Assembly (NCBI GenBank): GCA_050486545.1 | Contig: JBJHDM010000006.1 | Span: 27,365-91,364 of the forward strand | Source of the DNA: Rhodocyclaceae bacterium | Lineage (GTDB): Bacteria > Pseudomonadota > Gammaproteobacteria > Burkholderiales > Rhodocyclaceae | DNA length: 64,000 nt | Reading direction: 5' to 3' | In this document: positions 40,979-60,059 of the stretch, in pieces | Layout: every line of letters starts with the position of its first letter | Position numbering within the stretch: position 1 is the first letter of the stretch | The notes under the pieces: generated by a model | Database searches by the model: none | What the model was told of the DNA's origin: nothing | The model's input: the letters and a program-made list of their open reading frames with translations, nothing else | Position numbers and translations under genes: made by a program

Positions 40979-42070
40979 CTAAGCCCGGGCCGGCGCAGCC
41001 GAGGGAAACTGGTTTCGGGTCCGGTTGGCGATGCGTACCAGGGCCAGCATCAGCGGCACCTCGACGAGCACGCCGACCACCGTCGCCAGCGCGGCTCCGG
41101 ACTGCAGGCCGAACAGCGCGATCGCGGCCGCGACCGCCAGTTCGAAGAAATTGCTCGCACCGATCATCGCACCGGGAGCCGCCACCGGGTGCGGCACCTT
41201 CCACGCCCGTGCCCAGCCATACGCGATGAAGAAGATCAGGAAGGTCTGGAGGATCAACGGCACCGCGATCAGCACGATGTGCAGCGGATTGTTCAGGATC
41301 ACCTCGCCCTGGAAGGCGAACAGCAGCACCAGCGTGACCAGCAGCGCAGCCGGCGTAACCGGGCCGATGCGGCGCAGGAACACATTGTCGAACCACTCGA
41401 TGCCGTGCCGACGGATCAGGAAGACGCGGGTCGCATAGCCGGCCGACAGCGGAATCACGATGTAGAGCAGGACCGACAGCGCAACCGTATCCCAGGGCAC
41501 GATGATGTTCGAGACGCCGAGCAGGAAGACCACGATCGGCGCGAACGCGAACAACATGATGAGGTCGTTCAGCGCGACCTGTACCAGTGTGTAGGCGGCA
41601 TCGCCGCGGGTCAGGTAGCTCCAAACGAACACCATGGCGGTGCAGGGCGCAGCCCCGAGCAGAATCGCCCCGGCCAGATACTCGCGCGCGAGATCCTCGG
41701 GGATGAACGGTCGGAACACCACGATCAGGAAGAACCACGAGATCGCGAACATCGTGAACGGCTTGATCAGCCAGTTCACCGAGGTCGTGATCAACAACCC
41801 CTTGGGCTGGCGACGGACACCGACGATCGCAGCGAAATCGATCTGCACCATCATCGGAAAGATCATCGCCCAGATCAGCACCGCCACGGGCAAGGAAACC
41901 TGCGCGTACTCGAGCTTTGCAAGCGCAGCCGGCACGACCGGCGCCAGCTGCCCCAACGCCACCCCCGCGACGATGCACAACCCTACCCAGATGGTGAGAT
42001 AGCGTTCGAAAAAACCCAGCCCACCGCTGCGCGCGGGCTCGTCGTCGTGCCGTTCGTTCATCGTGTCCAT
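40979..42070 (-). CDS. acr3: ACR3-family arsenite efflux permease
   Basis: 363 aa polytopic protein with Acr3-like sequence (FFERYLTIWV...GAAPCTAMV...). Follows arsR by 7 nt. Confidence 0.85.
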   Translation of the reverse strand: MDTMNERHDDEPARSGGLGFFERYLTIWVGLCIVAGVALGQLAPVVPAALAKLEYAQVSLPVAVLIWAMIFPMMVQIDFAAIVGVRRQPKGLLITTSVNWLIKPFTMFAISWFFLIVVFRPFIPEDLAREYLAGAILLGAAPCTAMVFVWSYLTRGDAAYTLVQVALNDLIMLFAFAPIVVFLLGVSNIIVPWDTVALSVLLYIVIPLSAGYATRVFLIRRHGIEWFDNVFLRRIGPVTPAALLVTLVLLFAFQGEVILNNPLHIVLIAVPLILQTFLIFFIAYGWARAWKVPHPVAAPGAMIGASNFFELAVAAAIALFGLQSGAALATVVGVLVEVPLMLALVRIANRTRNQFPSAAPARA

Positions 42071-42077
42071 TCCGACT

Positions 42078-42413
42078 CTAGCTGCAAGCCTCCAGCGAGG
42101 GACGCTGCCCCATGCCGACTAGCCGGCTGCGGTCCCGCGCCCAATCACTGCCGCAAGCAGCCGCTTGCAACGCATCAATCACCCAACCCGGCAGATCCCT
42201 GCGCAGGCGATAGTGCACCCATTGCCCGCGCCGCTCGTCCTCCACCAGCCCGCCCTCGCGCAGCATCGCGAGATGCCTGGAGACCTTGGGCTGCGACAGC
42301 TCCAGTGCGTAGGTCAGTTCGCACACGCACAAGGACCCCTCGCCCTGCAGCAGCAGCGCACAGCGCAAGCGGGTGGAATCGGCGAGAAGGCGGAAGAGTT
42401 GCTCGGGCGTCAT
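42078..42413 (-). CDS. arsR: ArsR-family metalloregulator
   Basis: 111 aa. LCVCELTYALELSQPKVSRHLAMLREGGLV wHTH with the CVC metal site. Confidence 0.9.
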   Translation of the reverse strand: MTPEQLFRLLADSTRLRCALLLQGEGSLCVCELTYALELSQPKVSRHLAMLREGGLVEDERRGQWVHYRLRRDLPGWVIDALQAAACGSDWARDRSRLVGMGQRPSLEACS

Positions 42414-42563: not shown

Positions 42564-43889
42564 GTGAAGCAGACGAACGTTTCGTTCGCATCCGACATGA
42601 CGATCACGATTCCCGCCCTACCCGGAGCCCTCCCGATGCACAGTTCTTCCAGCCCGATTTCCACCTCCACGCCACCTGCGCGCAAGAACGCGATCAGGGA
42701 GTACACCCGCGAACTCCTGATCGAGGTGCCACCGATCGGATCGGCGACCACCAACGAAGAGGTCTTCCGGACCTTCAACGAGCAAGAACATCTGGTCAGC
42801 CTTCCCGTCGTCGAGGATGGGCGCCCGATCGGCCTGATCAATCGCCACATCTTCATGGAAAGCCTGGCCCGTCCGTTCCATCGCGAGATCTACCTCCGCA
42901 AGAGCTGCATCGCGTTCATGGGCAAGAACCCGCTCGTCGTCGAGGAAGACACAAGCATCGAGGAACTGTCGTTCCGCGTCCTGGCAGACGGCAGCAAGGC
43001 GCTCACCGACGGCTTCGTCATCGTGCGCGAGGGCATCTACGCGGGTCTCGGCCTGGCTCATGACATGCTGGCTGCGCTGGCTCATCTCCAGGCGGAGAAG
43101 AACCGTCTCGTCATGGAATCGATCGACTACGGCAGCATCATTCAGCAGTCGCTTTCGCGCGCTTCGCGCGAGGGCATGCGCGAGCATCTGCCCGATCACT
43201 TCCTGATCTGGGAACCCCGTGACGTCGTGAGCGGAGATTTCTACCACTTCCAGGACTTTGGCGACGGATTCCTGCTGGTCCTTTTCGACTGCACCGGTCA
43301 TGGCGTTCCGGGTGCCTTCATGACCCTCATCATGTCAGCCTTCCTGCAAGGCGCGATCAATGGAAAGACCTGCCGCGACCCGGGCGCGCTGATTGCCGAA
43401 ATCAACCGCAAGGTCAAGATCGCAATGGGCCAGCTCGACCACAGCCCCGATTCGGCAACGGAAGCGCATTCGGACGACGGCATGGACGCCGCCTTTTGCT
43501 GGTTCGATCGCGATCTTCGCCGCCTGACCTATGCCGGTGCCCACATGCCGTTGATGCTGATGCTGCCCGACACGGAAGGCGTCACCGTGATCGACGGCGA
43601 CCGGCAGGGCGTGGGCTACGCCACGACGGCCATGGACCAGTCCTGGCAAAACCACGAGATCACGCTCCCCGCGGGGACCACGTTGTACCTGTTCTCCGAC
43701 GGCATCTTCGATCAACTCGGTGGAGACAAACGTATCGCCTTCGGGAAACGGCGTGTTCGTGAATGTCTCATCGAACACCGTAGCCGCCCCATGCCGGAAC
43801 AGCGCCATGCCCTGCTCCAGGCCTTGACCGCATACCAAGGCACCGAAGCGCGCAAGGACGACGTCAGCGCGATCGGCCTCCGCCTCTGA
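42564..43889 (+). CDS. SiaA-like PP2C (SpoIIE-type) protein phosphatase with an N-terminal CBS pair
   Basis: ~430-441 aa. CBS-like region, then SGDFYHF..LLVLFDCTGHGVPGAFM and DDVSAIGLRL PP2C motifs. Start ambiguous: GTG at 42564 or ATG at 42597. Confidence 0.8.
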   Translation: MKQTNVSFASDMTITIPALPGALPMHSSSSPISTSTPPARKNAIREYTRELLIEVPPIGSATTNEEVFRTFNEQEHLVSLPVVEDGRPIGLINRHIFMESLARPFHREIYLRKSCIAFMGKNPLVVEEDTSIEELSFRVLADGSKALTDGFVIVREGIYAGLGLAHDMLAALAHLQAEKNRLVMESIDYGSIIQQSLSRASREGMREHLPDHFLIWEPRDVVSGDFYHFQDFGDGFLLVLFDCTGHGVPGAFMTLIMSAFLQGAINGKTCRDPGALIAEINRKVKIAMGQLDHSPDSATEAHSDDGMDAAFCWFDRDLRRLTYAGAHMPLMLMLPDTEGVTVIDGDRQGVGYATTAMDQSWQNHEITLPAGTTLYLFSDGIFDQLGGDKRIAFGKRRVRECLIEHRSRPMPEQRHALLQALTAYQGTEARKDDVSAIGLRL

Positions 43890-43906
43890 ACTCGGAGGAT
43901 TTTCCC

Positions 43907-44455
43907 TTGAAACTCGGTCATTTCAACGATTTCTGCACCCGTGCCGCATCCGACGGCGTGTTGTTCTACTACACCGGCGCGTTTACCTCGAACGTGGTCG
44001 GCACCCTTTCGGACACCGTCCGGGAACGGCTCGAAGCCCTGGGTACGCCCGACAGGCACAGGCGCAAGGTGTTCTCCACCTTCATGGAGATGGCGCAGAA
44101 CATTCTCCACTACGCCGACGCCACCCCGGGTGGCGGCCGGCGCATCGGCGCCTTGGCGGTCGGGCACGGGATCGGAAAGTTCTACGTCTTGTGCGGCAAC
44201 CCGGTGCGGATCGACCAGGTCGAGCGCATCCGCGACAAGCTCGAGCCGCTACGCACCATGACGCTGGACGAGATCAAGCTCGCCTACCGCCAGCAACTCC
44301 GCAACGACGCGCATGCGGAAGACGCCTTCAGCAAGGGCGCAGGGCTGGGTTTCCTGACGGTCGCGCGCGAGGCAAGCGAGCCGATCGACTACCAGATCGT
44401 CTATCGCGCCGACCAGCCATCCCACGCCGAGTTCTATCTACGTGCGGTCATCTGA
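43907..44455 (+). CDS. siaB: SiaB-family protein kinase
   Basis: 182 aa. Its pattern and position (between the PP2C phosphatase and the SiaC-like gene) match Pseudomonas SiaB. TTG start with GGAGGA 7 nt upstream. Confidence 0.7.
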   Translation: MKLGHFNDFCTRAASDGVLFYYTGAFTSNVVGTLSDTVRERLEALGTPDRHRRKVFSTFMEMAQNILHYADATPGGGRRIGALAVGHGIGKFYVLCGNPVRIDQVERIRDKLEPLRTMTLDEIKLAYRQQLRNDAHAEDAFSKGAGLGFLTVAREASEPIDYQIVYRADQPSHAEFYLRAVI

Positions 44456-44488
44456 CCCACGACAAACCTCGATCAAGGAGTTCGCCTT

Positions 44489-44881
44489 ATGCAAACCCTG
44501 CACATTCCCGCCACGAAGGAAACCCCGGAAGTCCATCTGGATACGGAAAGCATGAGCTTTCACCTATCCGGGGAATCGTATCCGGAAAACGCCATGGCCT
44601 TCTATGCACCGATCCGCTCCAGCCTGCAGCACTTTCTGGAAACCCCATCGGCAACAGACGGGGTGCAAGCCCACTTCAAGCTGCGCTATTTCAACAGCGC
44701 CAGCACGAAGCTGATCCGCGCTCTGGTCGCCATGCTGCAACAGAAGGCCAGCGACGGGATCCGTGTCGTCACGCATTGGTACCACGATCCGGACGACGAC
44801 ATGATGGCCGAGTTCGGCATGGATCTGAAGGAAGAATTCGACGCCCTGGAGTTCAACGTGGTCGCAAGCGAGAGCCTTTGA
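44489..44881 (+). CDS. siaC: SiaC-family (DUF1987) regulatory phosphoprotein
   Basis: 130 aa. LHIPATKETPEV...GESYPEN...YFNSASTK...HWYHDPDD resembles P. aeruginosa SiaC. AAGGAG RBS. Confidence 0.8.
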   Translation: MQTLHIPATKETPEVHLDTESMSFHLSGESYPENAMAFYAPIRSSLQHFLETPSATDGVQAHFKLRYFNSASTKLIRALVAMLQQKASDGIRVVTHWYHDPDDDMMAEFGMDLKEEFDALEFNVVASESL

Positions 44882-44922: not shown

Positions 44923-46281
44923 TCAGTGTCCGGAAACCCCGCTACGGTCTTCGTCCGAGCGCACGGAGAGCCCCAGCCGCTTCATCCGCTCCCACAGGTT
45001 CTTCCGGCTGATCCCAAGATGCGCGGCCGTGCGGGCAATCTGGCCATCGTTGGCTTCCAGCACTTTCGCGATGTAGGCGCGCTCACAGGATTGCAAGTAC
45101 CCCACCAGCCCTTCGGTCGGGTCTCCATCGCGCAGTTCGCTCGGCAGCGGGGTCTCGAAGAGTGCTTCGAGCATCAGGTCCTCTCCCGGACTCAGGATGC
45201 AGGCGCGCTCGATCGCATGCTTGAGCTCGCGGATATTCCCGGGCCACTGGTGCATGAGCAGGGCTTGCTCGACCGAAGCCGTGAGACGCTTGTGCTCACC
45301 TGGATGATCCGCGCAATAGGTGGCAAGCAGGCGGCGGGCCAGCCAGACGATGTCCTCGCGACGCTCACGGAGCGGAGGGATCCTGAGGTGGATGACGTGG
45401 ATGCGATAGAAGAGGTCGTCGCGAAAGCTGCCCTCCTCGACCATCTCCCGCAAGTCGCGATGGGTCGCGCAGATCAACCGCAGATCGACGGGAACGGCAC
45501 GCTCGCCCCCGACCCGCACGATGCGGCGATCCTGGATCGCCCGCAGCAACTTGACCTGCATCGCCAGCGGCATATCGCCGACCTCGTCGAGAAACAATGT
45601 TCCGCCATCGGCCTGCTCGAACACGCCGGGCCGCGCTCGGACCGCACCGGTAAATGCGCCCTTCTCATGGCCGAACAGTTCCGCCTCGAGCAGGTTCTCG
45701 GAGATCGCCCCACAGTTGACCGCGATGAACGGGCTGTCCGCCGTGCCGCTCGCCAAGCGATGCAGTTCGCGCGCGACCACCTCCTTGCCGACCCCGGACT
45801 CCCCGGAGATCAGCACGGTGCGGGCCTGCTGTGCGAGCCGTGGCAGCAGCGTCTCCATATGGCGCATCGCGCCGGACACCCCGAGACGGCAACTCACCGG
45901 CTCGGCGGGCGGCTCCGCAAGCAACCCGGCCAGCTTCTCGACCAGCGCATCGAGATCGAACGGTTTGGTGATGTAATCCGAGGCTCCGGCCTTGAGAAGT
46001 TCCACCGCTCGATCGATCGCCCCGTACCCGGTAATGAACAGCCAAGGTGGCAAGCGCACCCCGCACGACTTGAGCGAAAAATACAGCTCGTCACCACCGA
46101 TGTCGGGAAGCCGGATATCGCTGACCACGGCCGCGTAACGCCCGGACGATACGGCCAGCCCCGCGTCGTTGCCCGAGCGGTACCAGTCGAAATCGAACCC
46201 CTCGAGCTCGAAGCGATCGCACAGGGACTCCCCCATGATCTCGTCGTCCTCAATCAGGCAAAGGCGCGGTTTTGCACTCAT
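44923..46281 (-). CDS. arxR: sigma54-dependent (NtrC-family) response regulator, ArxR/AioR-like
   Basis: 452 aa. Receiver domain, AAA+ domain (GESGVGKE, GAFTGA, ESELFGHEKGAF-like) and a C-terminal Fis-type HTH. 4-nt overlap with the kinase gene. Confidence 0.7.
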   Translation of the reverse strand: MSAKPRLCLIEDDEIMGESLCDRFELEGFDFDWYRSGNDAGLAVSSGRYAAVVSDIRLPDIGGDELYFSLKSCGVRLPPWLFITGYGAIDRAVELLKAGASDYITKPFDLDALVEKLAGLLAEPPAEPVSCRLGVSGAMRHMETLLPRLAQQARTVLISGESGVGKEVVARELHRLASGTADSPFIAVNCGAISENLLEAELFGHEKGAFTGAVRARPGVFEQADGGTLFLDEVGDMPLAMQVKLLRAIQDRRIVRVGGERAVPVDLRLICATHRDLREMVEEGSFRDDLFYRIHVIHLRIPPLRERREDIVWLARRLLATYCADHPGEHKRLTASVEQALLMHQWPGNIRELKHAIERACILSPGEDLMLEALFETPLPSELRDGDPTEGLVGYLQSCERAYIAKVLEANDGQIARTAAHLGISRKNLWERMKRLGLSVRSDEDRSGVSGH

Positions 46282-47732
46282 GAAACGGACTCCGTGATGG
46301 GAAGGATGACCGTGAACACCGTCCCGACCAACTCGTCGCTATCGACTTCGATGCTGCCCCCCAGTTGCTGCACGAGTTGATACGTCACCCAGAGCCCCAG
46401 CCCGTGCCCATCGGAAGTCGATCCGACGAAGGGTTCGAACAGGTGAGTCAGGCGGTCGCGCGGGATCGGCTGGCCGCGATTGGCGACCCGCGCTTCGAAT
46501 ACGGTCCCACGTCGATCGATGTCGCACACGATCTCGCTCCCCGGTTCCGCCGCCTGCACGGCATTGAGCAGGAGATTGAGCAGAATCTGCCGCACCTGCG
46601 TGGAAGGCAGGGACACGGCTTCGGCGAGGGTACCGCGCCACACGAGATGGACACGCTTGCGAACGAGGTGCGGCTGCAGCAAGGTCCGCAGATCGTCGAA
46701 ATCCTGCGCGGTCAGTGGATGGCTCTGCAGCCGAGCCTCGACCAGCAGCGCGGCGACCGTCTCCTTGATCTGGAGCAGTCCCCGTTCCAGCAGGGGCAGG
46801 GTCTTGGTCGTGAGTTGCTCGGGCTGGCCATGCCGCTTGTAGGTACTGATCGCGTTGAGCATGCCGCCGAGCGGGTTGTTGATCTCGTGGGCGATTCCGG
46901 CCGTGATCCGTCCGATCGCAGCCAGGCGCTCGCTGGCGATGATCTGTCGCTCCAGCGCCTCCTTCTCCCGAAGCGCCGTCAACATGAGCTTGAGTTGCGT
47001 GCCGGCACGCCCGACTTCATCGCGCGACTCGTACAGCCGGCATTCGGCCTCGGCCGGAATGCTGTCCCCGACCCGGCTCATGCAGTCGGCAAGTTGGACG
47101 AGCGGGTCGGCCATTCGGCGCCCCCAATACCAGCTGATCGGCAGCAGCACCGCAAGCACGAGCAGCGTGATCAGCGCGGCGCGATTGACGATGCTGAGGA
47201 AGCGGGGCTGGAAGATCGACCTGGGGTATTCCATGACCAGCGTGCCCAGTGGTACGCCGTCGAAGACAATGGGCATCAGCAGATGAAACTCGCTTGCATC
47301 CGGCAGTTCGATCGCCCGCGACTCCAGTAGGGGACGGCCGTCAAGTTCCGCTGCGAGCCGTGCGTAGGTCGGGCCCAGCCGGGCCAGATCGAACTGGATC
47401 GGGTGCTCGCGCGGACGAGTCGACGCATAGACTCGCTGCTGGGCGTCGAGTACGAGCATCAATTCGGCACCCAGCGACGCCTGCGCCCCCGTATGCACGG
47501 GCATGCTGATGATCTCGTAGGCCCGCCACAGGTCGTCGTGCAGCATCGGCGTGATCAGCGTCATCGCCAGCACCCGCCCGAGGCTTTCCGCACTCTCGAA
47601 TAGATCGGTCCGCAACTGCTCGTATTCGCGCATCACGTTGGCCACGGTCAGCATCACCGCGGTGACCAGCACCAGCAGCGTCGCCCGCAGCGGGATCTTG
47701 TAGCGGAAACTGAGGTCGTGAAAACGCAACAT
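46278..47732 (-). CDS. arxS: membrane sensor histidine kinase, ArxS/AioS-like
   Basis: 484 aa. Two TM segments flank a ~160-aa periplasmic loop. H-box AGIAHEINNPL and an HATPase domain. ATG at 47732, 1 nt after the arxX stop. Confidence 0.65.
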   Translation of the reverse strand: MLRFHDLSFRYKIPLRATLLVLVTAVMLTVANVMREYEQLRTDLFESAESLGRVLAMTLITPMLHDDLWRAYEIISMPVHTGAQASLGAELMLVLDAQQRVYASTRPREHPIQFDLARLGPTYARLAAELDGRPLLESRAIELPDASEFHLLMPIVFDGVPLGTLVMEYPRSIFQPRFLSIVNRAALITLLVLAVLLPISWYWGRRMADPLVQLADCMSRVGDSIPAEAECRLYESRDEVGRAGTQLKLMLTALREKEALERQIIASERLAAIGRITAGIAHEINNPLGGMLNAISTYKRHGQPEQLTTKTLPLLERGLLQIKETVAALLVEARLQSHPLTAQDFDDLRTLLQPHLVRKRVHLVWRGTLAEAVSLPSTQVRQILLNLLLNAVQAAEPGSEIVCDIDRRGTVFEARVANRGQPIPRDRLTHLFEPFVGSTSDGHGLGLWVTYQLVQQLGGSIEVDSDELVGTVFTVILPITESVS

Positions 47733-47733
47733 C

Positions 47734-48618
47734 TCAGCGCCGGTCGACAAGGCGCGCCATTTCGCGGATCTCGCCGAACATGGCCGGGTCGCCGGGCACG
47801 AAGCCATCAAGGTTCAGCGTCTCGAGCAGCCGTGCTCCCGCGGGGTCATCGCGCATGTTGAGGAATACCCCCTGCGCAGCATCGAAGATCGCGTCATCGA
47901 TATCGCTTCGCGCCACGAACGGAGGAAAACCGTAGACCGGGGATGTCGAGATCACCCGCGTGTCCGCCGTGATTTCCGGATGGATGCGATCGAGCGTCTC
48001 CCAGACGTAACCGGCCACGGCTCCGCCGTCGGCGAGCCCGACCGAAACGGCCTCGACGACCTTGCGATGGGACCACGTATAGAAACTGCGGCGAAAAAAC
48101 TGCTCGGGACTGCGACGGGCGCGGTGAAGCAGGAACCGGGGATACAGCGATCCTGAGAAGGAATTCGGATCGGAAAAGGCAAACACCCGTCCAGCGAGGT
48201 CCTCCATGCCGTTGACCTCACGGGCATCGTGCCGCGCGATCAGATAGGAGCGGTATTCGGGTCGCCCGAGATGCAAGGGTACGGCCATCAGCCGAAGTCG
48301 ATCCTGGTCCATCACGTACGGGTAGCCGCACATCCACGCGATGTCGAGCGTCTTCGCGTTGATCTGCTCGGAGATCTCCCGGTAGCTCGAGCGCTGCACA
48401 AAGGTCACCGGCAGGCCAGTCTTCTGCGCAATGTAATCACGCCAGCGGTTCAGAAACGCGGCCTGATCGTCAAGAAACACCGGCGTCAGGCCGATGCGCA
48501 AGCTGTTTCCAAGCTCGTCGATCGCACCAAGCGCGGGGACAGACGCACCTAGCGCGATCGCTCCGAGACCCGTCAGGAAATCACGTCGTTCCATCGCCAC
48601 CAATACGCTCTCGAACAT
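47734..48618 (-). CDS. arxX: periplasmic PhnD/AioX-type substrate-binding protein, ArxX-like
   Basis: ~294 aa. Tat-like leader MERRDFLTGLGAIALGA and a PBP fold-type sequence. First gene of the X-S-R trio, divergent from the Mo-enzyme operon. Confidence 0.65.
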   Translation of the reverse strand: MFESVLVAMERRDFLTGLGAIALGASVPALGAIDELGNSLRIGLTPVFLDDQAAFLNRWRDYIAQKTGLPVTFVQRSSYREISEQINAKTLDIAWMCGYPYVMDQDRLRLMAVPLHLGRPEYRSYLIARHDAREVNGMEDLAGRVFAFSDPNSFSGSLYPRFLLHRARRSPEQFFRRSFYTWSHRKVVEAVSVGLADGGAVAGYVWETLDRIHPEITADTRVISTSPVYGFPPFVARSDIDDAIFDAAQGVFLNMRDDPAGARLLETLNLDGFVPGDPAMFGEIREMARLVDRR

Positions 48619-48710
48619 GCACCCCGGACCGAGTGTACCGCCTTCGTTCGGCCGCTGCGAGTCCGCCTTTCGCCCGGTTTCGTGGCTAAAACAGCGGCAA
48701 CCGAAGTCAT

Positions 48711-48768
48711 GTTACCCGGGCGTAACCCCTGCAGATACGGCCGGCATACGCAGTTACCCATCGGTAAC
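48711..48768. promoter_or_regulatory. two GTTAC-N6-GTAAC inverted repeats (candidate ArxR enhancer sites)
   Basis: 48711-48726 (GTTACccgggcGTAAC) and 48753-48768 (GTTACccatcgGTAAC). Centres are 42 bp apart and lie 53 and 95 bp upstream of the -24 element. Confidence 0.5.
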
Positions 48769-48811
48769 ATCGATCTGCCAATTACCCCGACATCCGTATG
48801 GATTTCGAACA

Positions 48812-48826
48812 TGGCATGAATCGTGC
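48812..48826 (+). promoter_or_regulatory. sigma54 (-24/-12) type promoter for arxB2ABCD
   Basis: TGGCATgaatcGTGC versus the consensus TGGCAC-N5-TTGC. GG and GC have the correct spacing. The predicted transcription start falls within 1-2 nt of the arxB2 ATG, which needs checking. Confidence 0.45.
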
Positions 48827-48838
48827 GGATTACCATGC

Positions 48839-50053
48839 ATGCCCATCCACGCCCGCCCTGTTTCGAACCTGACCCGAATCGCTTCCCACGCAAACCTGTG
48901 GAGCAATGCGGGGGCCTGTCTTCCGCAGCGTTTTGCCAACGTGGCCTGCAGACGCTGCGTCGAGGAATGTCCCACTGGCGCCTTTTCGGCGACTCCGGAA
49001 GGGTTCTCCGTAGGATCCGCTTGTGTCGATTGCGGCCGATGCGCAGCCGTCTGTCCAACCAGTGCGCTATCACTCGGCGACTTCCGCCTGGAGATTCCTG
49101 AGCCGTCGCCTGGAGCAATCGTCATCGAATGCCGCAAGGTCCCTGCACAGGTCACCGAACCTCATGCGGTGCGGGTTCCGTGCTGCGGAGCGCTATCGAC
49201 CGCACAGTTCCTCGCGCTTGCCAATGCCTCGAACGGGAACGGGGTCGAAGTGATCGATCGTGGCTGGTGCGGCACCTGTAGCGCGGGCGGAAGCGCTCAC
49301 CCGGCCGAAGAGCGGATGACGGTGGCCAACGAGCTACTCGCACACATGGGCGTTCCGCTGGAGGGACGCATGACCTTCACCGGCCGCACGCTTCCGGCCG
49401 GGCAATGCCCGGACTCCATACCCGGTCGCGACTCGGGTGCCGGCGTGAGTCGTCGCGGCTTTCTGCGCCGGCTCGTCGGTGAGGTGGCACACGCGACCGA
49501 TACTGCCACGCCGGAAATCCTCGGCACGGAGGAACCAGTGGATGGACATGCACGGATCGTTCCGACGGAACGGCTCGCCATTCTGAGCGAGCTGCGTCTG
49601 GCCGGCGCCCGTAGTGGCCGCCAACTGCCCGCAGCGCTGTACCACGAGATCTCGATTGCCGAGCAATGCCGGGATCATAAGCTGTGCGCGACCGCTTGCC
49701 CGGTCTCGGCCCTGCGTAGCCGGGATGAAGAGACCCGCACCGGCATCGACTTCCATCCCGCCTTGTGCATCGGCTGCGGGGCATGCGAACGCATCTGCCC
49801 GGAACATGCCCTCGCGCTTCGCCCCGCGACCGAGCCGCCGAAGGCAGCCCCGATTGCGCTCACCTGCCACACGACGACGGCCTGCTTTGCATGCGGCATG
49901 CCGTTCGTCGGACCCGGCGCGAACGACCGCCAGGAAGACGAACCGATCTGCCCGGAGTGCCAGAAATCCCGGGATCTCGGGAGATCACTTTTCTCCGGAC
50001 TTTTTCCACCCATCGACGACAACAAAACGATCCATTCAGGAGGGGTTCGATGA
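48839..50053 (+). CDS. arxB2: multi-[4Fe-4S] ferredoxin-like protein, ArxB2-like
   Basis: 404 aa. CVDCGRCAAVCP and CIGCGACERICP plus two degenerate cluster motifs. An internal SRRGFLRRL motif. A C-terminal CFAC...CPEC ribbon. Position directly upstream of arxA. Confidence 0.6.
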   Translation: MPIHARPVSNLTRIASHANLWSNAGACLPQRFANVACRRCVEECPTGAFSATPEGFSVGSACVDCGRCAAVCPTSALSLGDFRLEIPEPSPGAIVIECRKVPAQVTEPHAVRVPCCGALSTAQFLALANASNGNGVEVIDRGWCGTCSAGGSAHPAEERMTVANELLAHMGVPLEGRMTFTGRTLPAGQCPDSIPGRDSGAGVSRRGFLRRLVGEVAHATDTATPEILGTEEPVDGHARIVPTERLAILSELRLAGARSGRQLPAALYHEISIAEQCRDHKLCATACPVSALRSRDEETRTGIDFHPALCIGCGACERICPEHALALRPATEPPKAAPIALTCHTTTACFACGMPFVGPGANDRQEDEPICPECQKSRDLGRSLFSGLFPPIDDNKTIHSGGVR

Positions 50054-50122
50054 CACGAAGTACCACCGTGATGCGCCATGCGACCACGACACACCACTCA
50101 TGCTGCTGAGGAGACGCCAGCG

Positions 50123-52603
50123 ATGAACATCTTCAACACCCTGATGAACCGGCGGCGCTTTCTCAAGACCAGCGCCGCCGCCGGCGCGACCGGCGCAGCC
50201 GTGACGGGCATGGGAGGCCTGCCCGGACTGACGCCGGTGAAGGATGCGAAGGCCCAGGCCGCGCGGGGCCAGACGACCGTCACCAAGAACATCTGCGCAC
50301 AGTGCCCCGCGCGCTGCGGAATCGACGTATACACGACCAATGGGCGCGTACATGCGATCTACGGCGATACGGGCAACCCGATCGCCAACGGCAAGCTCTG
50401 CCCCAAGGGTCACCTGGGCACCTACTTCCTCTACGATCCGGACCGCTTCAAGGGACCGATGAAGCGAACCAACCCGAGAAAGGGGCGCAACGAAGACCCG
50501 GGCTTCGTGCCGATTTCCTGGGACGAGGCGCTCGACACCATCGCCGCGCGCCTGCAGGTGCTGCGCGACAAGGGCGAATCGCACCGCTTCGCCCACTTCT
50601 ACGGGCGTGGCTGGGGCGCCTCCGACGCCGGACTGTACGGCGACTTCGGCAAGCTGTACGGCACACCGAACTCGGCGATCGGCCACGCCTCGATGTGCGC
50701 CGAGGGCAGCAAGCGCGCCAAGCGCGCCACCGACGGCAACGATTCGTACAACTCCTACGACTACCGCAACACCAACTACATCCTGAACTTCGGCGCGGGC
50801 TTTCTCGAGGCCTTCCGCCCGTACAACTACCTGATGCAGATGTGGGGCCACATGCGCAGCAAGAGCCCGCAGACCCGCATCACGACCATCGACGTACGCA
50901 TGAATCCGACGATGGCGGCCTCGGACCGGGCGCTCTACATCAAGCCGGGAACCGACGGCGCACTGGCACTGGCGATCGCCCACGTCATCCTCACCGAGGG
51001 CCTGTGGGATCGCGAGTTCGTCGGCGATTTCCACAATCCGGAAACCCGCTTCCGGACCGGGCAGCGGATCACACCGATCTCGTTCGACCAGAAGTGGGTT
51101 CACGGGCTGCCCGAATGGTGGAACGAGGAACTCAAGGACCGCACGCCGGAATGGGCCGAAAGCGTGACCACGATCCCCGCCCGCGACATCGTCACCGTCG
51201 CGCGTGAGTTCGCCACCACCCGCCCCGCCATGGCGATCATGGAGCGCGGCCCGACGGCCCATACCAACGGCACCTACAACGGCATGGCGATCCATGCACT
51301 GAACGCGCTGGTTGGCTGCATGTTCGCCGAGGGTGGCATGTATTACCAGATGGGCACGCCCTATGGGGGTCTTCCGGTCAATTCCGACGACTACCTCGAC
51401 GACTGGGCGAAGGATGGGGACTGGAAGAAGTTCCCGCGCATCGACAAGGCCCGCACCGCCGAATGGCCGATGACCTCCCACATGATGCAGGAAGCCGGAC
51501 CGAACCATCTTAAAGGCGACCCGTACAAGCTCGACACGGCGATGTTCTTCTACACCAATCCGATCTGGACCGCGCCGAACCCGAAGGTGTGGGAGGAAGC
51601 GCTGAAGGACGTGTTCGTGATCGACACCTCGCCATTCCCCGGCGAGACGGCCATGTACGCGGACATCGTCGTGCCGGATCACACCTACCTGGAGCGCCTG
51701 CAGGACTCGCCGACCTATCCCTTCGAGGGTTGGCCGATGACGGCCCTGCGCGTGCCGGCTGTCGATCCGATCTACGACACCAAGCACTTCGGCGACACGC
51801 TGATCGAGATCGGCAAGCGCATGAAGGGGCCGATGGGCGAGTACTACAAGGCGCTCGGCAACACCGAGAACGTGTTGCGCCATCGCGCCAAGGGCTTCGA
51901 GACGAACCCCGGCGACAACGGCGTCAACAGCTTCGAGACCTGGAAGGAAAAGGGCGTCTGGTACCGCAAGCCCTACCACTGGCGCCAGCACCGCGGTGAA
52001 TTCTTCGAGTGGGACGGCAAGGGCTACAACACGGCGATGAGTGCGGACGACGTGAAGGCCAAGCTCATCAAGACGCCTTCCGGCAAGTTCGAGTTCAAGT
52101 CCGGCTATCTCGAGGGTCATGCCGAATACATCCACCGCGAACTCGGCGTTCCGGCCGACCGCGTCGGTCTGATCCAGTGGGTCGAGCCCAAGCACTCCGG
52201 TCAGGGCGATCTCTACTTCGTGTCACCCAAGACCCCGCTGCACGCGGAAGGCCGCTCCGGGAACATTCCCCACGCGATCGCGAACCAGCAGCCCATCGTC
52301 GGCGGTCGCAACACGGTGTATCTGGAGATCCACCCGGACACCGCCCGCGCGCGCGGCATCCGCAACGGCGACAAGGTGCGGATCAAGTCCAATCTCGGTG
52401 CGATCGAGGCGTATTGCCGGTACATGCCATCGCACCGTCCCGACACGCTGGTGCTGCCGATGGAGCATGGCCACTGGGCGCAGGGACGCTGGGCCAAGGG
52501 ACGCCTGCCGGGTCATTCCGGCGAAATCACCGAGAACGTATCCGATCCGATCTCCGGGCTTGCCTGCTACTACACCGGCAAGGTCACCGTGGAACGGGCC
52601 TGA
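50123..52603 (+). CDS. arxA: molybdopterin oxidoreductase catalytic subunit, ArxA-type arsenite oxidase
   Basis: 826 aa. Tat leader MNRRRFLKTSAAAGA. C-X2-C-X3-C-X27-C (CAQCPARC...LCPKG). YGRGWG motif. Cys in HASMCAEG. GAGGAG RBS. Confidence 0.75.
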   Translation: MNIFNTLMNRRRFLKTSAAAGATGAAVTGMGGLPGLTPVKDAKAQAARGQTTVTKNICAQCPARCGIDVYTTNGRVHAIYGDTGNPIANGKLCPKGHLGTYFLYDPDRFKGPMKRTNPRKGRNEDPGFVPISWDEALDTIAARLQVLRDKGESHRFAHFYGRGWGASDAGLYGDFGKLYGTPNSAIGHASMCAEGSKRAKRATDGNDSYNSYDYRNTNYILNFGAGFLEAFRPYNYLMQMWGHMRSKSPQTRITTIDVRMNPTMAASDRALYIKPGTDGALALAIAHVILTEGLWDREFVGDFHNPETRFRTGQRITPISFDQKWVHGLPEWWNEELKDRTPEWAESVTTIPARDIVTVAREFATTRPAMAIMERGPTAHTNGTYNGMAIHALNALVGCMFAEGGMYYQMGTPYGGLPVNSDDYLDDWAKDGDWKKFPRIDKARTAEWPMTSHMMQEAGPNHLKGDPYKLDTAMFFYTNPIWTAPNPKVWEEALKDVFVIDTSPFPGETAMYADIVVPDHTYLERLQDSPTYPFEGWPMTALRVPAVDPIYDTKHFGDTLIEIGKRMKGPMGEYYKALGNTENVLRHRAKGFETNPGDNGVNSFETWKEKGVWYRKPYHWRQHRGEFFEWDGKGYNTAMSADDVKAKLIKTPSGKFEFKSGYLEGHAEYIHRELGVPADRVGLIQWVEPKHSGQGDLYFVSPKTPLHAEGRSGNIPHAIANQQPIVGGRNTVYLEIHPDTARARGIRNGDKVRIKSNLGAIEAYCRYMPSHRPDTLVLPMEHGHWAQGRWAKGRLPGHSGEITENVSDPISGLACYYTGKVTVERA

Positions 52604-52631
52604 TCCCCTGCACAGATAGGAGTTATCGACA

Positions 52632-53384
52632 ATGGCAAAGTGGGGAATGGTCATCGACCTGGACAAGTGCACCGGCTGTCAGGCCTGTACGACGGCGTGC
52701 GCGATGGAAAACAACACCCTGCCCGGTGAGAGCTGGCAGGACGTCCTCTACTATCACGAGGGCACCTACCCGAGCGGGCAGATGAAGTGGCTGCCGCGCC
52801 CGTGCATGCAGTGCGAGAACCCCTCGTGCGTGCATGTGTGCCCGACCCGGGCGACCTACAAGGACATGGACGCGGGCGGGATCGTGTTCGTCGACTGGAA
52901 CAAGTGCATCGGCTGCAAGTACTGCATGATCGCATGCCCCTACGGCGTGCGCTTCTATGCCGACGAAAAGCCCTTGCTCGAGCCCGACCTGCGTTCGATC
53001 TTCCCGGGCGGAAACGGCCAGATGTGGAGTCCCCCGTACCAGAACCCGGAACAGGACTGGAAGCGCGGCATCGGCATCCAGCCGGCAGGCGTCGTCTCGA
53101 AGTGCACCTTCTGCTACCACAAGGTCGGCAACGCGCCGGCCGGGACCGCCGACCTGGACGAGGACAATCCGGAGGTCAAGGAGTACGTGCCGGCCTGCGT
53201 GCGCACCTGTGCGCCCAAGGCACGCTTCTTCGGCGATCTCGACAATCCGAAGAGCCAGGTCAACCGGCTGATCGCCGACAAGCGCGGCGTGCGCCTCAAG
53301 GACCATACCGGCAACCGCCCGCAGGTGTACTACCTCGGCGCCGGTGCAAGCGTGCCGGCCTTCGATCCCAAGCCGCGTTCCTGA
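52632..53384 (+). CDS. arxB: four-cluster 4Fe-4S subunit (ArxB; NrfC/PsrB family)
   Basis: 250 aa. CTGCQACTTAC, CMQCENPSCVHVCP, CIGCKYCMIACP and CTFC...C motifs. Confidence 0.75.
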   Translation: MAKWGMVIDLDKCTGCQACTTACAMENNTLPGESWQDVLYYHEGTYPSGQMKWLPRPCMQCENPSCVHVCPTRATYKDMDAGGIVFVDWNKCIGCKYCMIACPYGVRFYADEKPLLEPDLRSIFPGGNGQMWSPPYQNPEQDWKRGIGIQPAGVVSKCTFCYHKVGNAPAGTADLDEDNPEVKEYVPACVRTCAPKARFFGDLDNPKSQVNRLIADKRGVRLKDHTGNRPQVYYLGAGASVPAFDPKPRS

Positions 53385-53398
53385 GGAGGGACTGACCA

Positions 53399-54607
53399 AT
53401 GAGCAACGAAAACATCATGAAGGGCCCGGCGGGAACCGGACTGCTGATCGTCTCGGCAATCGTCCTGCTGGCCTCGTTCGCATTCGCAGTGTCCAACCTG
53501 GGCAGCCAGGGACACGCCAGCCTGAACACCAGTTCCACGCTGCCGTGGGGACAGCCGATCGCGACCTACCTGTACTTCGCGCTGGCCTCGTCGGGTCTCG
53601 GGCTGATCGCCTCGCTGCCGCTGGTGTTCGGGTTCAAGCAGTTCTACCCGATCGTCAAGCGCTGCATCTTCCTCGCCTTCGTCATCCTGATTTCCGGGAT
53701 GGCGGTACTGGCGATGGAACTGGGGCATGTCTTCCGCATGCTGTGGGTCATCCCGTTCAACCTGCAGATCCAGTCGGCGATGTTCTGGATGGGCGTGTTC
53801 TACGTGGCCGATCTCGCATTCCTGTTGTGGAAGTTCCAGAAGATGGAAACCGGCGACTGGGACAGCAAGACCAGCCGCCAGGTCGGCATTGCCTCCTTCC
53901 TCGGCGTGCTGCTCGCAAGCGGCAATCTCGCGCTGATCTTCGGCATGATGAGCATGCGCCCGTTCTGGTTCGACGGCCTGCTGCCGATCTACTTCTACCT
54001 GACGGCGGTTGCAAGCGGACTGGCGGCGCTGGTCTTCTTCACCTATCTCGCACACGGCTTCAGCCGAGAGCGTATGCCGCAGCGCCTGCGCGACCTGCTG
54101 GAAGGTTCCCTGCCGAAGCTCTTTGCCGCAGTGCTTGGCGGCACGCTGCTGTTCATCGCTGTGCGCGCGATCACCGGCCTGTACAGCAACAACCCGGAGA
54201 TCTACCACGTCTGGAAGGACTACCTGTTCGCCTCGCCGGTATACCAGGCCTCACTGTGGCTCGGGCTCGTCCTGCCGTTCGTGGTGATGCTCGCGGCGTC
54301 GATGCGCACCCAGGCGGGCACGCAGTTACTCATCTCCATCCTGGTCTTCGGCGGCCTGTTCGCCGAGCGCTACTTCTTCGTCGTCGGCGGGCAGGTCGTG
54401 CCGATGTTCAAGGGCACCTGGGAATGGAGCCTCATCGAATATGCCCCTTCGATCACCGAATGGAGCCTGACGATCATGGGTTCAGCCCTGCTTTTCACCC
54501 TGTATGCGCTGGGAGAGAAGCGATTGAATCTGTCGGCCATGCCGCCGACGGCCTCCGAGCCGTCTGGTTCGACGACCGCCGCGCAACCGGCTGCCGCCGG
54601 AAGCTGA
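53399..54607 (+). CDS. arxC: NrfD/PsrC-family integral membrane quinol-interacting subunit (ArxC)
   Basis: 402 aa polytopic protein. GGAGGG RBS. Position after the FeS subunit. Confidence 0.75.
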   Translation: MSNENIMKGPAGTGLLIVSAIVLLASFAFAVSNLGSQGHASLNTSSTLPWGQPIATYLYFALASSGLGLIASLPLVFGFKQFYPIVKRCIFLAFVILISGMAVLAMELGHVFRMLWVIPFNLQIQSAMFWMGVFYVADLAFLLWKFQKMETGDWDSKTSRQVGIASFLGVLLASGNLALIFGMMSMRPFWFDGLLPIYFYLTAVASGLAALVFFTYLAHGFSRERMPQRLRDLLEGSLPKLFAAVLGGTLLFIAVRAITGLYSNNPEIYHVWKDYLFASPVYQASLWLGLVLPFVVMLAASMRTQAGTQLLISILVFGGLFAERYFFVVGGQVVPMFKGTWEWSLIEYAPSITEWSLTIMGSALLFTLYALGEKRLNLSAMPPTASEPSGSTTAAQPAAAGS

Positions 54608-54629
54608 ACCGGTCGGGATCCCGGAGTTG

Positions 54630-55589
54630 ATGCAATACCGGCCCCGGGATCCCATTTCTTCGGACCCAGAGGATAGCGCCATGACGCAAGACAATCTCCA
54701 ACTGACCCTTCGCGCGGAACTCTGCCTGTGCCTGTCGCGAGCCTTCCTGCCGCCCCTGCAGGACGACGATTTCACCGCGATGACGATGGACTTTCCCGTC
54801 GATCTCGAGGAACTGGATGCGGAGCTTCGCCGGATCGGCTCCGACCGGCTGACCCGGATCAGACGGAGCCTGGCTTCGTTCGCAGACCACTCGACGTTGC
54901 TCCGGACCTACAGCCGGCTGTTTCTCGCACCGCCCGCCCCCGCCCTGCTCAACCTGGGCCTCTACCTGGACGGCGGGCTGATGGGCAACAGTTGCAGCGA
55001 ACTCGAACGCCTTTACAACGCGTACGGACTTCAACGTGACCCGGAGTTCCGCGACGGCTCGGACCATGTTTCCCTGTACTTCCAGTTCCTCGCGTGGTGC
55101 TACGCCCGGGCGCAGGACCATCTCGACGCAGGGGACGAGACACAGGCCCTGAACGTACTGCACGACGTCGGACACAGCCTCGTGCACCATGGCATTCCCG
55201 CCATCGGGCATCTGCTCGCGCAATTGCGCAAAGCCGAATCCTCACTCGGGCTGCCCGACACGTTCGGCGAACTTGCGGAACTTGCGCGGCTCGCGCTCAC
55301 CGACGATGCCAGGACGATCGGAGCCCGATTACCCGCAACGCCGGCAGCGCAAACACAAACACCAGAACTCCCCGAAACCGCCATGGCCGGAACGCCTGCA
55401 ACCGAATCGATCTTCGCCTGCAATCACTGCAAGCGCTCGTTCCTCGCCGAGCGTTCACTTGCGACCATGATCGACGTACTGGCCTCGAAGGGGCTGGACA
55501 CCGCTCACATGACGGTCTGTCCGGAATGCCGTACGAAGGCAATGGGACTCACACCCCTGGAGGCACCCCGGTTCAGGAAGGCTTCATGA
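54630..55589 (+). CDS. arxD: TorD/DmsD-family maturation chaperone with a C-terminal zinc-ribbon extension (ArxD)
   Basis: ~319 aa. TorD-like core (YSRLF..., SDHVSLYFQFLAW). C-terminal CNHC...CPEC at 55419-55529. Start uncertain: 54630 or 54681. Confidence 0.65.
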   Translation: MQYRPRDPISSDPEDSAMTQDNLQLTLRAELCLCLSRAFLPPLQDDDFTAMTMDFPVDLEELDAELRRIGSDRLTRIRRSLASFADHSTLLRTYSRLFLAPPAPALLNLGLYLDGGLMGNSCSELERLYNAYGLQRDPEFRDGSDHVSLYFQFLAWCYARAQDHLDAGDETQALNVLHDVGHSLVHHGIPAIGHLLAQLRKAESSLGLPDTFGELAELARLALTDDARTIGARLPATPAAQTQTPELPETAMAGTPATESIFACNHCKRSFLAERSLATMIDVLASKGLDTAHMTVCPECRTKAMGLTPLEAPRFRKAS

Positions 55590-57498: not shown

Positions 57499-58398
57499 TC
57501 AGCCGTAACGGCCGGTGATGTAGTCCTCGGTGGCCTTCTTCGAGGGGGTCACGAACAGCCGCTTGGTATCCCCGTACTCGATCAGTTCACCGAGGTACAT
57601 GTAGGCAGTGAAATCCGACACCCGCGCGGCCTGTTGCATGTTATGGGTGACGATGAGGATCGTGTACTCCTGCTTCAGTTCCTCGACCAGTTCTTCGATC
57701 TTGGCGGTCGAGATCGGATCGAGCGCCGAAGTCGGCTCGTCCAGCAGCAGCACCTCGGGCTCGATCGCGATCGCGCGCGCGATGACGAGGCGCTGCTGCT
57801 GCCCCCCGGACAGGCCGAAGGCGTTGGTCTGCAGGCGATCCTTGACCTCGTCCCACAGCGCGACGCTCCGGAGCGAGCGCTCGACGACCTCGTCGAGGAC
57901 GGCCTTGTCCTTGACGCCCTGCAGACGCAGGCCGTAGGCCACATTCTCGTAGATCGTCTTCGGGAACGGGTTCGGCTTCTGGAACACCATCCCGATCTTG
58001 CGCCGCAACTCGGCGGCGTCCACACCCTTCCCGTAGATATTCTCGCCATGCAGGTTGATCGAGCCCTCGATGCGGCAGGAGTCGACCAGGTCGTTCATGC
58101 GGTTGAAACAGCGCAGCAGCGTCGACTTGCCGCAACCGGACGGGCCGATGAACGCGGTGACGCGCTTGGCCGGGATCCGCATGCTGACCGATTTGAGCGC
58201 CTGGTCGTTTCCGTAGTAGAGATCCAGATCCTCGACGGTGATCGCGATCTCCTCGTCGTCGAGCGAGAGGTAGGCTCGCGTATCGTCGCTGAAGAGTCCG
58301 GCGCTCATGCTGGTCGGGGGGGTAGCCATGTTCATAGTACTGCTCCGGTCGGATTCGGGGGTTGCCGGCTGGGGGTGGGAAACGACGGCGGCGTCCAT
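57499..58398 (-). CDS. pstB: phosphate ABC transporter ATP-binding protein
   Basis: Walker [18 protein letters not shown] and [11 protein letters not shown] motifs. ATG at 58398 overlaps the pstA stop and has a GGAGGG RBS. A downstream Met (MNMATPP) is an alternative start. Confidence 0.9.
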
Positions 58399-60059
58399 CA
58401 GTCGCCCTCCGCGCGGTACTTCTCGCGCAGGTGGTTGCGAATCGTGATCGCGGTCAGGTTGAGTGCCACGATCAACAGCACCAGGATCAGTGCCGTCGCG
58501 TAGACCAAGGCCTCGGCGGCCTCGGCGTGTGGGCTCTGGAAACCGACGTCGTAGATGTGGAAGCCCAGGTGCATGATCTTGCGCTCGAGATGGATGAACG
58601 GGAAATTGCCGTCGACCGGCAGCGTCGGGGCAAGCTTGACCACGCCCACCAGCATCAGCGGTGCGACTTCGCCGGCCGCCCGGGCGATCGCAAGGATCAG
58701 TCCGGTCATCATCGCCGGCGTGGCGAGCGGCACCACCACTTTCCACAGCGTCTCGCCCTTGGTCGCACCCAGCGCCAGCGAGCCCATGCGGATCGTGGAG
58801 GGAATGCGCGACAGGCCCTCCTCGGTCGACACGATGACCACCGGCAAGGTCAGCAGTGCGAGCGTCAGCGAGGCCCAGAACAACCCGGGCGTACCAAAGG
58901 TAGGGGCCGGCAGCGCCTCGGGATAGAAGGCCTGGTCGATCGCACCGCCCAGCACATAGACGAAGAAGCCCAGCCCGAACACGCCGAACACGATCGAGGG
59001 CACGCCGGCGAGGTTGTACACCGAAATCCGGATCGCCTTGAGCAGCGGCCCCTGCTTCGCGTACTCGCGCAGGTAGATCGCGGCGAGCACGCCGAATGGC
59101 GTGACGATGATCGACATCACCAGGACCATCACGACGGTGCCGAAGATCGCCGGGAAGATCCCGCCCTCGGTATTCGCCTCGCGCGGGTAGCCGAAGATGA
59201 AATCGAAGAACGACTCGACGTAGAAGACCACCTTGGAGAACACCGACATGTCGTTCGGCTGCCAGGCCTTGACGATCGCGTTCAGGCCCACCGTGACCTC
59301 CTGTCCGTCGGCTACCGTGAGCACGAGCGCGTCGCGCCGGACCTCGTCGAGCAGCGTGTTCAAACGCTCCTGCAACAATGCGTACTCGGCATCGAGCACC
59401 TCGCGGCGCTGGACGAACTCGCGTTCCATCTCCGGTGTGAGCGTTCCACGCAGTTCGGCCCTTCGCCGATCCAACCGAACGCGTTCGAGCCGGAAGTTGA
59501 CGTTGCCGATGTCATGGCGCTCGATGCGACGGATCTCGTCGAACAGCTTGCTGCTGCGCGCAAGCCGCTCGGCCAGCGCCGGCCACACCGCATCGCGCTC
59601 GGCGACCACTCGCCCGTGCTCGAGCAGACGCAGCGGCTGGCCGTAGAAGTCGCCCCACTCGCGCCGCTCGAGCACGATGATGTCCTTCGGATAGGTCCAC
59701 TCGCCGAGAAAATCGTCGACCAGGTACATGAAGTCGCGGCCGGTCACGTCGCGGTTGCCGAGCTTGAACAGATGCCGGGTGACCAGCCGTTGGTCCTCGG
59801 GCAGCCCCAGTCCTGCGTCGCGCAACACCTGGGCCGTCAACGTCTCGGACTTGCGCAGCTCGCCGATCACCCGCACCGGTTCGGCACCCGGTACCGCATA
59901 GGTCGTGGCGACGACGGCATGCGGCCAGAAGTGGCCGAAACCCCGTACCAGGATCAGTGCGAGCAGGCCGAACACCATGATGATGCTGATGCTCACCGCA
60001 CCACCGTTCAACCAGATCCACGGCGACCCGCTTTTCCACCATTGTTTCATCGAATCCAC
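58398..60059 (-). CDS. pstA: phosphate ABC transporter permease PstA (long form)
   Basis: ~550 aa. C-terminal PstA permease core with an N-terminal ~250-aa extension. GTG at 60059 or ATG at 60050. Confidence 0.85.

Follow-up and report, generated by a model that had tools for sequence, protein, structure and literature searches.

A canonical arx locus, the gene set for anaerobic arsenite oxidation, very probably occupies positions 44923-55589 of the 64,000-nucleotide stretch of contig JBJHDM010000006.1 from a Rhodocyclaceae bacterium (hereafter, the window). A divergent regulatory module, arxXSR, faces a structural operon, arxB2ABCD, in which a slyD-like gene is probably included. An earlier reading of this DNA from its letters alone (the sequence-only reading) had described a minus-strand trio and a divergent plus-strand operon, and the list of open reading frames (ORFs) confirmed all eight genes together with their order, strands, and lengths. 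All eight genes are intact, and their order matches the published arx order. Since eight intact genes with strong family matches were obtained, a chance arrangement is of no concern.

Domains were assigned with Pfam and NCBIfam models, using the curated NCBIfam cut-offs. On the minus strand, arxR (44923-46281) encodes a 452-aa sigma-54-dependent response regulator containing PF00072 (REC), PF00158 (Sigma54_activat), and the Fis-type PF02954 (HTH_8) domains; arxS (46278-47732) encodes a 484-aa membrane sensor histidine kinase with HisKA and HATPase_c domains; and arxX (47734-48618) encodes a 294-aa periplasmic binding protein of the AioX/ArxX/ArrX subfamily with the phosphonate-binding fold PF12974. 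The start of arxS was assigned to the ATG at 47732, just past the arxX stop codon; the mechanical ORF reaches 47810. Two hydrophobic segments of ArxS, predicted to be transmembrane (residues 13-31 and 179-197), surround a loop of approximately 150 aa, and a signal resembling those of the twin-arginine translocation (Tat) system, RRDFL, is present in ArxX.

On the plus strand, arxB2 (48839-50053) encodes a 404-aa cytoplasmic multi-[Fe-S] ferredoxin-like protein with 26 Cys residues and two Fer4 dicluster domains (residues ~36-76 and ~273-325), in which neither a signal peptide nor a transmembrane segment was found. It is followed by arxA (50123-52603), the gene for the 826-aa Tat-exported catalytic subunit, which carries a molybdenum bis(pyranopterin guanine dinucleotide) (Mo-bisPGD) cofactor and shows TAT_signal, Molybdop_Fe4S4, Molybdopterin, and Molydop_binding domains. 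The exact sequence of this 826-aa form is present in a public protein collection. The product of arxB (52632-53384; 250 aa, Fer4_11 and related domains) is an electron-transfer subunit assigned four [4Fe-4S] clusters, because its 16 Cys residues, arranged in four groups, suffice for four. It has no signal peptide of its own and is presumably exported together with ArxA. The last two genes of the operon are arxC (53399-54607), which encodes a 402-aa NrfD/PsrC-type integral membrane, quinone-interacting subunit (PF03916, NrfD) with approximately 8-9 hydrophobic segments, and arxD (54627-55589), which encodes a 320-aa TorD/NarJ-type maturation chaperone (PF02613, Nitrate_red_del; weak match to TIGR03482).

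The identity of the catalytic subunit is central to this assignment. ArxA has a twin-arginine motif, RRRFLK, at residues 10-15, with matches to PF10518 and TIGR01409. The N-terminal [4Fe-4S] motif C-X2-C-X3-C-X27-C (residues 58-93), FYGRGWG (residues 159-165), and HASMCAEG (residues 188-195) were all found where the sequence-only reading had placed them. When ArxA was aligned to the ArrA structure 6cz7, FYGRGWG faced LRGRYSH, and the Cys of HASMCAEG fell at the position of the ArrA Cys. XGRGWG in ArxA versus (R/K)GRY in ArrA is the distinguishing signature (PMC6549141, citing Glasser 2018); both this signature and the arx gene order, which the sequence-only reading had also given, are stated in that paper. 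GRGWG was present in all of the 120 best database homologs (65-91% identity), among which the named organisms include Ectothiorhodospira sp. BSL-9, Alkalispirillum mobile, Thioalkalivibrio, Halomonas, Marinospirillum, and Azoarcus taiwanensis. ArxA showed 75% full-length identity with the Alkalilimnicola ehrlichii MLHE-1 protein ABI55571.1, which falls in the same 90% cluster as the A. mobile protein, and 73% full-length identity with the BSL-9 protein. The [4Fe-4S] motif, GRGWG, and HASMCAEG are identical in the MLHE-1 protein, and residues ~155-240, around GRGWG and the Mo-ligand Cys, are nearly identical. Mutagenesis of arxA in both MLHE-1 and BSL-9 has demonstrated that the gene is essential for arsenite oxidation (PMC6549141).

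A neighbor-joining tree (135 sequences, 760 columns, 200 bootstraps) was constructed from the window protein, ten named homologs, and all full-length 50%-identity representatives obtained by an exhaustive HMMER search. The window ArxA fell into a clade of 12 sequences with 100% bootstrap support, all of which have GRGWG and which include BSL-9 and a representative of the MLHE-1 cluster; within this clade, BSL-9, A. mobile, T. sulfidiphilus, Halomonas, and Marinospirillum grouped with the window ArxA in a sub-clade supported at 99%. The ArrA clade (14 sequences, 98%), in which RGRY is found in most members and is missing from a few (such as P0171 and P0188), and the PsrA clade (13 sequences, 100%) both exclude the window protein. 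Because the 100% GRGWG clade lies outside the ArrA and PsrA clades, branching within the ArrA or Psr/Phs/Ttr groups was not seen in this approximate test, and the arx identity proposed in the sequence-only reading held. Three 50%-identity representatives (P0122, P0123, and P0124), which are 43-49% identical to ArxA, were sister to the Arx clade and joined it at 100% bootstrap, and they have GGRYRG, AGRLRG, and YGRGMG in place of GRGWG.

The enzyme could alternatively act in vivo mainly in the Arr-like direction, as a respiratory arsenate reductase. The ArrA of Shewanella sp. ANA-3 was the closest solved structure to ArxA (1.4e-101), followed by Thermus PsrA (5.4e-56), and the ArrA equivalog NF041714 was the best NCBIfam model. 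Arx and Arr share a common ancestry, and the MLHE-1 Arx enzyme is reportedly reversible in vitro. Furthermore, the title of a reference in PMC6683785 reports arsenate respiration in the Rhodocyclales genus Sulfuritalea. However, the score of ArxA with the ArrA model was 419.5 bits, a quarter of the cut-off of 1600 bits, and GRGWG, not (R/K)GRY, is found at the aligned active-site position. In addition, ArxA lies outside the ArrA clade, the locus contains arxB2 and an AioX-like sensor that retains the arsenite-binding Cys, and the closest characterized homologs are arsenite oxidases as judged by mutagenesis (PMC6549141). A main role in arsenate reduction is consequently regarded as very unlikely, and an Arx-type arsenite oxidase is preferred.

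The sensor also points to arsenite. When ArxX was compared with solved structures, the matches to AioX (6esv, 2.5e-55) and ArrX (2.7e-44) were far stronger than those to PhnD/PtxB (1e-8 to 1e-12). Six of the seven AioX pocket residues are retained in ArxX (Tyr88, Cys106, Tyr131, Ser161, Ser163, and His192). Cys106 is the arsenite-binding residue of AioX and is not found in PhnD (PMC5908839). The seventh, Asp210, is Ala in the window sequence and in five of 36 further ArxX proteins; the remaining six residues are invariant. According to Badilla et al. (PMC5908839), pocket residues alone do not determine specificity. The Asp210 replacement here and at five other loci, together with that conclusion, would allow an arx-type enzyme that in vivo acts on, or is induced by, a different metalloid oxyanion, antimonite being one example. 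On the other hand, MLHE-1 ArxX, whose Kd for arsenite was 311 nM, bound none of the other tested oxyanions, including antimonite (PMC5908839), the ArxA region around the active site is nearly identical to that of MLHE-1, and acr3 and arsR adjoin the locus. Specificity for another oxyanion appears even less probable than a role in arsenate reduction.

Least probable is that the enzyme serves the sulfur metabolism encoded in the same window as a polysulfide, thiosulfate, or tetrathionate reductase (Psr/Phs/Ttr): although it shares the A-B-NrfD subunit architecture with Psr and JGI names the members of its 90% cluster "thiosulfate reductase / polysulfide reductase chain A", which bears out the remark in the sequence-only reading that such loci are easily mislabeled, ArxA failed the PhsA (286.7 bits; cut-off, 694) and TtrA (36.6 bits; cut-off, 1750) models, matched Thermus PsrA far more weakly than ArrA, was excluded from the PsrA clade, and is 73-75% identical to ArxA of both organisms in which arxA was mutated, while the AioX-type sensor and the arsR-acr3 neighbors indicate arsenic.

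The assignment to arx was further examined by synteny. All eight Arx proteins were compared by tblastn with 80 loci that encode ArxA relatives at 64-91% identity; these loci were taken from a scan of one genome per species, in which MLHE-1 was not included. The genes arxB2ABCD were found in the same order in most of the loci, with an arxB2 homolog upstream of arxA in 63 of them. The divergent arxRSX module was located at the same position in approximately 30 loci, and syntenic homologs of arxS were found in 35. The module was absent from the loci of Halomonas, Marinospirillum, and Nitrincola, in agreement with PMC6549141; it is a variable part of arx and is absent in Oceanospirillales. The nearest loci by ArxA belong to Rhodocyclales, namely Azoarcus taiwanensis NSC3 (L074, 91% identity), an Azoarcus metagenome-assembled genome (MAG; L001, 90%), Pseudothauera lacus (L078, 87%), a Thauera MAG (L003, 86%), and a Rhodocyclaceae MAG (L014, 79%).

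The degree of conservation differed among the subunits. ArxB was 92-93% identical in the Azoarcus, Thauera, and Pseudothauera loci, and ArxC was 79-82% identical in these loci versus 44% in L014. ArxR was 84% identical to its L014 homolog and 71-76% identical to those of the other Rhodocyclales arx loci. ArxB2 and ArxD were very divergent, with maxima of 59% and 48% identity, respectively, among the 80 loci. Beyond its TorD domain, ArxD has a C-terminal tail (residues 265-301) with CxxC motifs at 265 and 298, which resembles a zinc ribbon; a similar tail with two CxxC motifs was found in 31 of 64 ArxD homologs. The modules were not congruent in their nearest relatives: ArxR, ArxS, ArxX, and ArxB2 were closest to L014 (84, 85, 81, and 59%, respectively), and ArxA, ArxB, and ArxC to Azoarcus, Thauera, and Pseudothauera (86-93%; ArxC, 79-82%). 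A recent recombination, by which arxABC would have been swapped into another arxXSR backbone, was considered and rejected, as a sliding comparison of the DNA in 600-nt segments revealed no sharp breakpoint; it is kept as a weak side note, given the incongruent identities.

The regulatory DNA was examined in the 220-bp spacer between arxX and arxB2. ArxR combines a REC domain, an AAA+ domain with GAFTGA at residue 208, and HTH_8, and it thereby fits the set of AtoC/NtrC-type sigma-54 enhancer-binding proteins, whose target operons have a -24/-12 promoter. The palindrome GTTAC-N6-GTAAC occurs twice in the spacer, at 48711-48726 and 48753-48768, the copies lying 42 bp apart; both are candidate ArxR enhancer sites. 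These two copies account for all matches in the 64-kb window, for which 0.19 would be expected. Exact matches numbered 58 in 1.36 Mb of related loci, and 55 of these were 1-2 kb upstream of arxA. Among loci with arxXSR, 30 of 35 contained the palindrome, compared with only 1 of 23 loci lacking arxXSR. The copies are mostly paired at a spacing of 42-43 bp and lie approximately 45-100 bp upstream of the -24 element, as would be expected for the sites of an enhancer-binding protein. Both copies lie in conserved blocks of six Rhodocyclales loci, each being exact in 4-5 of the six.

A sigma-54-type -24/-12 element, TGGCATGAATCGTGC (TGGCAT-N5-CGTGC), was found on the plus strand at 48812-48826, and it ends 12 nt before the arxB2 ATG. 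Its position is conserved in the related loci, and a sigma-54 site scoring at least 18/21 occurred in 83% of 29 arxX-arxB2 spacers, compared with 3.9% of 1124 length-matched random segments. It is the conservation of position across loci, not the search of the window, that makes this match meaningful. In six Rhodocyclales loci (the window, L014, L003, L078, L001, and L074), the -12 TGC ends 10-12 nt before an invariant CATG that contains the start of arxB2, whereas the gap between the element and arxB2 is 50-137 nt in other lineages. Since the -12 sequence abuts the start codon and no alternative in-frame start was found downstream of the CATG, a leaderless or near-leaderless arxB2 mRNA is predicted. 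A scan of the arx locus for sigma-70 promoters and terminators yielded nothing beyond the shuffled expectation. For the MLHE-1 genes, Badilla et al. (PMC5908839) had previously proposed an upstream RpoN promoter together with a "gtaac..." ArxR site. The present result on the palindromes and the promoter refines and generalizes that proposal and is not a discovery.

The analysis itself established the gene content, the domain architecture, the clade membership, and the conserved cis-elements that accompany arxXSR. By analogy with characterized homologs, from which the substrate, catalytic direction, inducer, quinone reduction, and terminal acceptor are assigned, the locus would operate as follows. 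Periplasmic ArxX would bind As(III) via its conserved cysteine and signal to the membrane kinase ArxS, leading to phosphorylation of ArxR. ArxR would then bind both GTTAC-N6-GTAAC palindromes and activate sigma-54 RNA polymerase at the promoter abutting arxB2. ArxA would be matured by ArxD in the cytoplasm and exported by Tat with ArxB as a passenger, and the complex would dock on ArxC. As(III) would be oxidized to As(V) at the cysteine-ligated Mo-bisPGD center of ArxA, and the electrons would pass from the [4Fe-4S] cluster of ArxA through the four ArxB clusters and ArxC to the quinone pool and into an anaerobic respiratory chain.

Several points weigh against this reading. The oxidation of arsenite by this organism is a prediction from its homologs. 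The physiological direction is not fixed by the sequence, because Arx is close to the arsenate reductases and the MLHE-1 enzyme reportedly runs both ways in vitro. The tree was computed by neighbor joining, not maximum likelihood, and its ArrA and PsrA anchors were partial sequences rebuilt from PDB alignments. A literature search found no paper that ties ABI55571.1 / Mlg_0216 to the arxA locus tag. The sigma-54 consensus, taken in the window by itself, occurred at the chance level (66 matches versus 64 expected), and control of arx by ArxXSR was without experimental demonstration as of 2019 (PMC6549141, PMC6683785). Finally, the window showed neither a nitrate reductase or other terminal reductase nor rpoN.

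The arx locus of the window was compared with characterized systems. The MLHE-1 prototype matches the window in its eight genes, their order, and their divergent orientation, and the proposed RpoN promoter and ArxR site likewise lie upstream. MLHE-1 is a gammaproteobacterial haloalkaliphile, whereas the host of the window appears, by its nearest loci, to be betaproteobacterial (Rhodocyclaceae-like), and the abutment of the sigma-54 promoter on the arxB2 start codon distinguishes the window from MLHE-1. The arx genes of Ectothiorhodospira BSL-9 and PHS-1 have the same arrangement (PMC6549141), and BSL-9 ArxA shares the 99% sub-clade; however, arsenite oxidation in these strains is coupled to anoxygenic photosynthesis, and no photosynthesis genes were seen in the window. 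The E. shaposhnikovii-type ArxA (L066) is merely 66% identical to the window ArxA. Compared by description, Azoarcus sp. CIB is also a Rhodocyclales host with eight arx genes in two divergent operons, and the combination of anaerobic conditions and arsenite is needed to induce its arxA, which is required for arsenite use (PMC6683785). Its arx genes differ in being inside a 50-kb arsenic island (genome island V) that has integrase and transposase genes (PMC6683785).

Shewanella sp. ANA-3 ArrAB (6cz7) shares with the window the DMSO-reductase-family fold, the Tat signal, the [4Fe-4S] motif, the Cys Mo ligand, and a four-cluster B subunit. It differs in the active-site signature, the equivalog score, and the clade, and the arx locus has in addition arxB2, an NrfD-type ArxC, and a sigma-54 regulator. 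In Rhizobium sp. NT-26, AioX aligns to ArxX, and AioXSR likewise includes an AtoC-type sigma-54 activator with an RpoN promoter (PMC5908839). In contrast, AioXSR controls the unrelated Rieske/Mo enzyme AioAB, and the enhancer palindrome and the Ala at position 210 of ArxX set the window apart from it.

Immediately downstream, a slyD-like gene for an FKBP peptidyl-prolyl isomerase (PF00254; 55592-56023, plus strand) starts 3 nt past the arxD stop codon. Of the 52 loci that allowed a judgment, 28 have a same-strand homolog no more than 1.5 kb downstream of arxD, and this linkage spans Halomonas, Marinospirillum, Nitrincola, Thioalkalivibrio, and Rhodocyclales. The gene is not mentioned in the arx papers PMC6549141 and PMC6683785. 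It is possibly a ninth, co-transcribed arx gene or a conserved accessory gene.

On the other side of the locus, an arsR-acr3-usp cluster (40155-42413, minus strand; HTH_5, TIGR00832, and Usp) encodes an arsenite-responsive ArsR repressor, the arsenite efflux pump ACR3, and a tandem universal stress protein. The sequence-only reading had placed the arsR-acr3 pair about 2.5 kb away; arsR (42078-42413, minus strand) is 2510 bp from the arxR stop codon, and acr3 scored 397 bits with TIGR00832, above the curated cut-off of 282.8. The arsR-acr3-usp genes are also neighbors of arx at L014 and L074. A three-gene cassette on the plus strand (42564-44881) lies between arsR and arxR and encodes a protein with CBS and SpoIIE/PP2C phosphatase domains, a DUF6272 protein, and a SiaC-family phosphoprotein; it resembles a SiaABC partner-switching module without the SiaD cyclase. 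The gap between arsR and arxR is approximately 1.9 kb in L074 and only approximately 80 nt in L014, so that L014 cannot hold such a cassette, and a SiaA-like match was found in 1 of the 80 loci. Past fkpA and a Sel1-repeat gene, a pstSCAB operon for high-affinity phosphate transport (57499-63455, minus strand) was found; arx is likewise linked to pst in L014, L001, and L078. To judge from the gene arrangement, phosphate uptake beside an arsenate-producing enzyme may not be coincidental.

The entire neighborhood, tpiA-usp-acr3-arsR-arxRSX-arxB2ABCD-slyD-fkpA-sel1-pstBAC, is present in L014. The flanks shared with L014 on both sides (tpiA-usp-acr3-arsR and slyD-fkpA-sel1-pstBAC) point to a stable chromosomal position. 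A genomic island was considered and is not supported: the GC content is flat, there is a single tRNA-Leu approximately 6 kb upstream, and the flanks are common to L014, L001, and L078. No integrase or transposase gene was found among the annotated flanking genes, the window not having been annotated exhaustively.

Genes for lithotrophy are found upstream in the window and encode SoxZ and SoxY (386-1273), an HdrA-like/MvhD-like flavoprotein (2873-5248), AprBA and Sat (9644-13466), and the small and large subunits of a [NiFe] hydrogenase (16717-19358), which adjoin a gene for a methyl-accepting chemotaxis protein. The window also contains a nuo operon. The sequence-only reading had suggested that arx would add arsenite to sulfur and H2 as electron donors in one organism. 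This remark is reasonable and is largely borne out by the sulfur and hydrogenase genes; the hydrogenase subunits scored just under the curated cut-offs and may be of the uptake or the sensory class. The combination is not new, as the donors of MLHE-1 already include arsenite, sulfide, thiosulfate, and H2.

The arx locus of the window is thus a textbook one, and its host had not been described as carrying arx. The MLHE-1-type "group 1" enzymes (MLHE-1, Halomonas, and Marinospirillum), among which the window ArxA nests, had been found only in gammaproteobacterial haloalkaliphiles (PMC6549141, 2019). The minor new points are the occurrence of an MLHE-1-type enzyme in a betaproteobacterium, the conserved slyD-like gene, and the promoter abutting the arxB2 start. 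As a broader and tentative proposal, which we hold to be possible but less than probable, the group 1 ArxABC may be a stable chromosomal feature of a Rhodocyclales subgroup, lying between tpiA-usp-acr3-arsR and slyD-fkpA-pst and accompanied by three undescribed, lineage-specific traits: a leaderless or near-leaderless arxB2 mRNA, a double GTTAC-N6-GTAAC enhancer, and a slyD-like ninth gene that possibly aids the maturation of a Tat substrate.

The understanding of how arx works is unchanged by this locus. A betaproteobacterial sulfur oxidizer joins the hosts of the MLHE-1-type enzyme, and slyD is flagged as a possible accessory gene. The two palindromes and the sigma-54 promoter are concrete, testable cis-elements for the still unproven regulation by ArxXSR. 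In addition, a locus that pipelines call "molybdopterin-dependent oxidoreductase" or "thiosulfate/polysulfide reductase" is relabeled as an anaerobic arsenite oxidase, and the correct arx label bears on how arsenic cycling is read from metagenomes.

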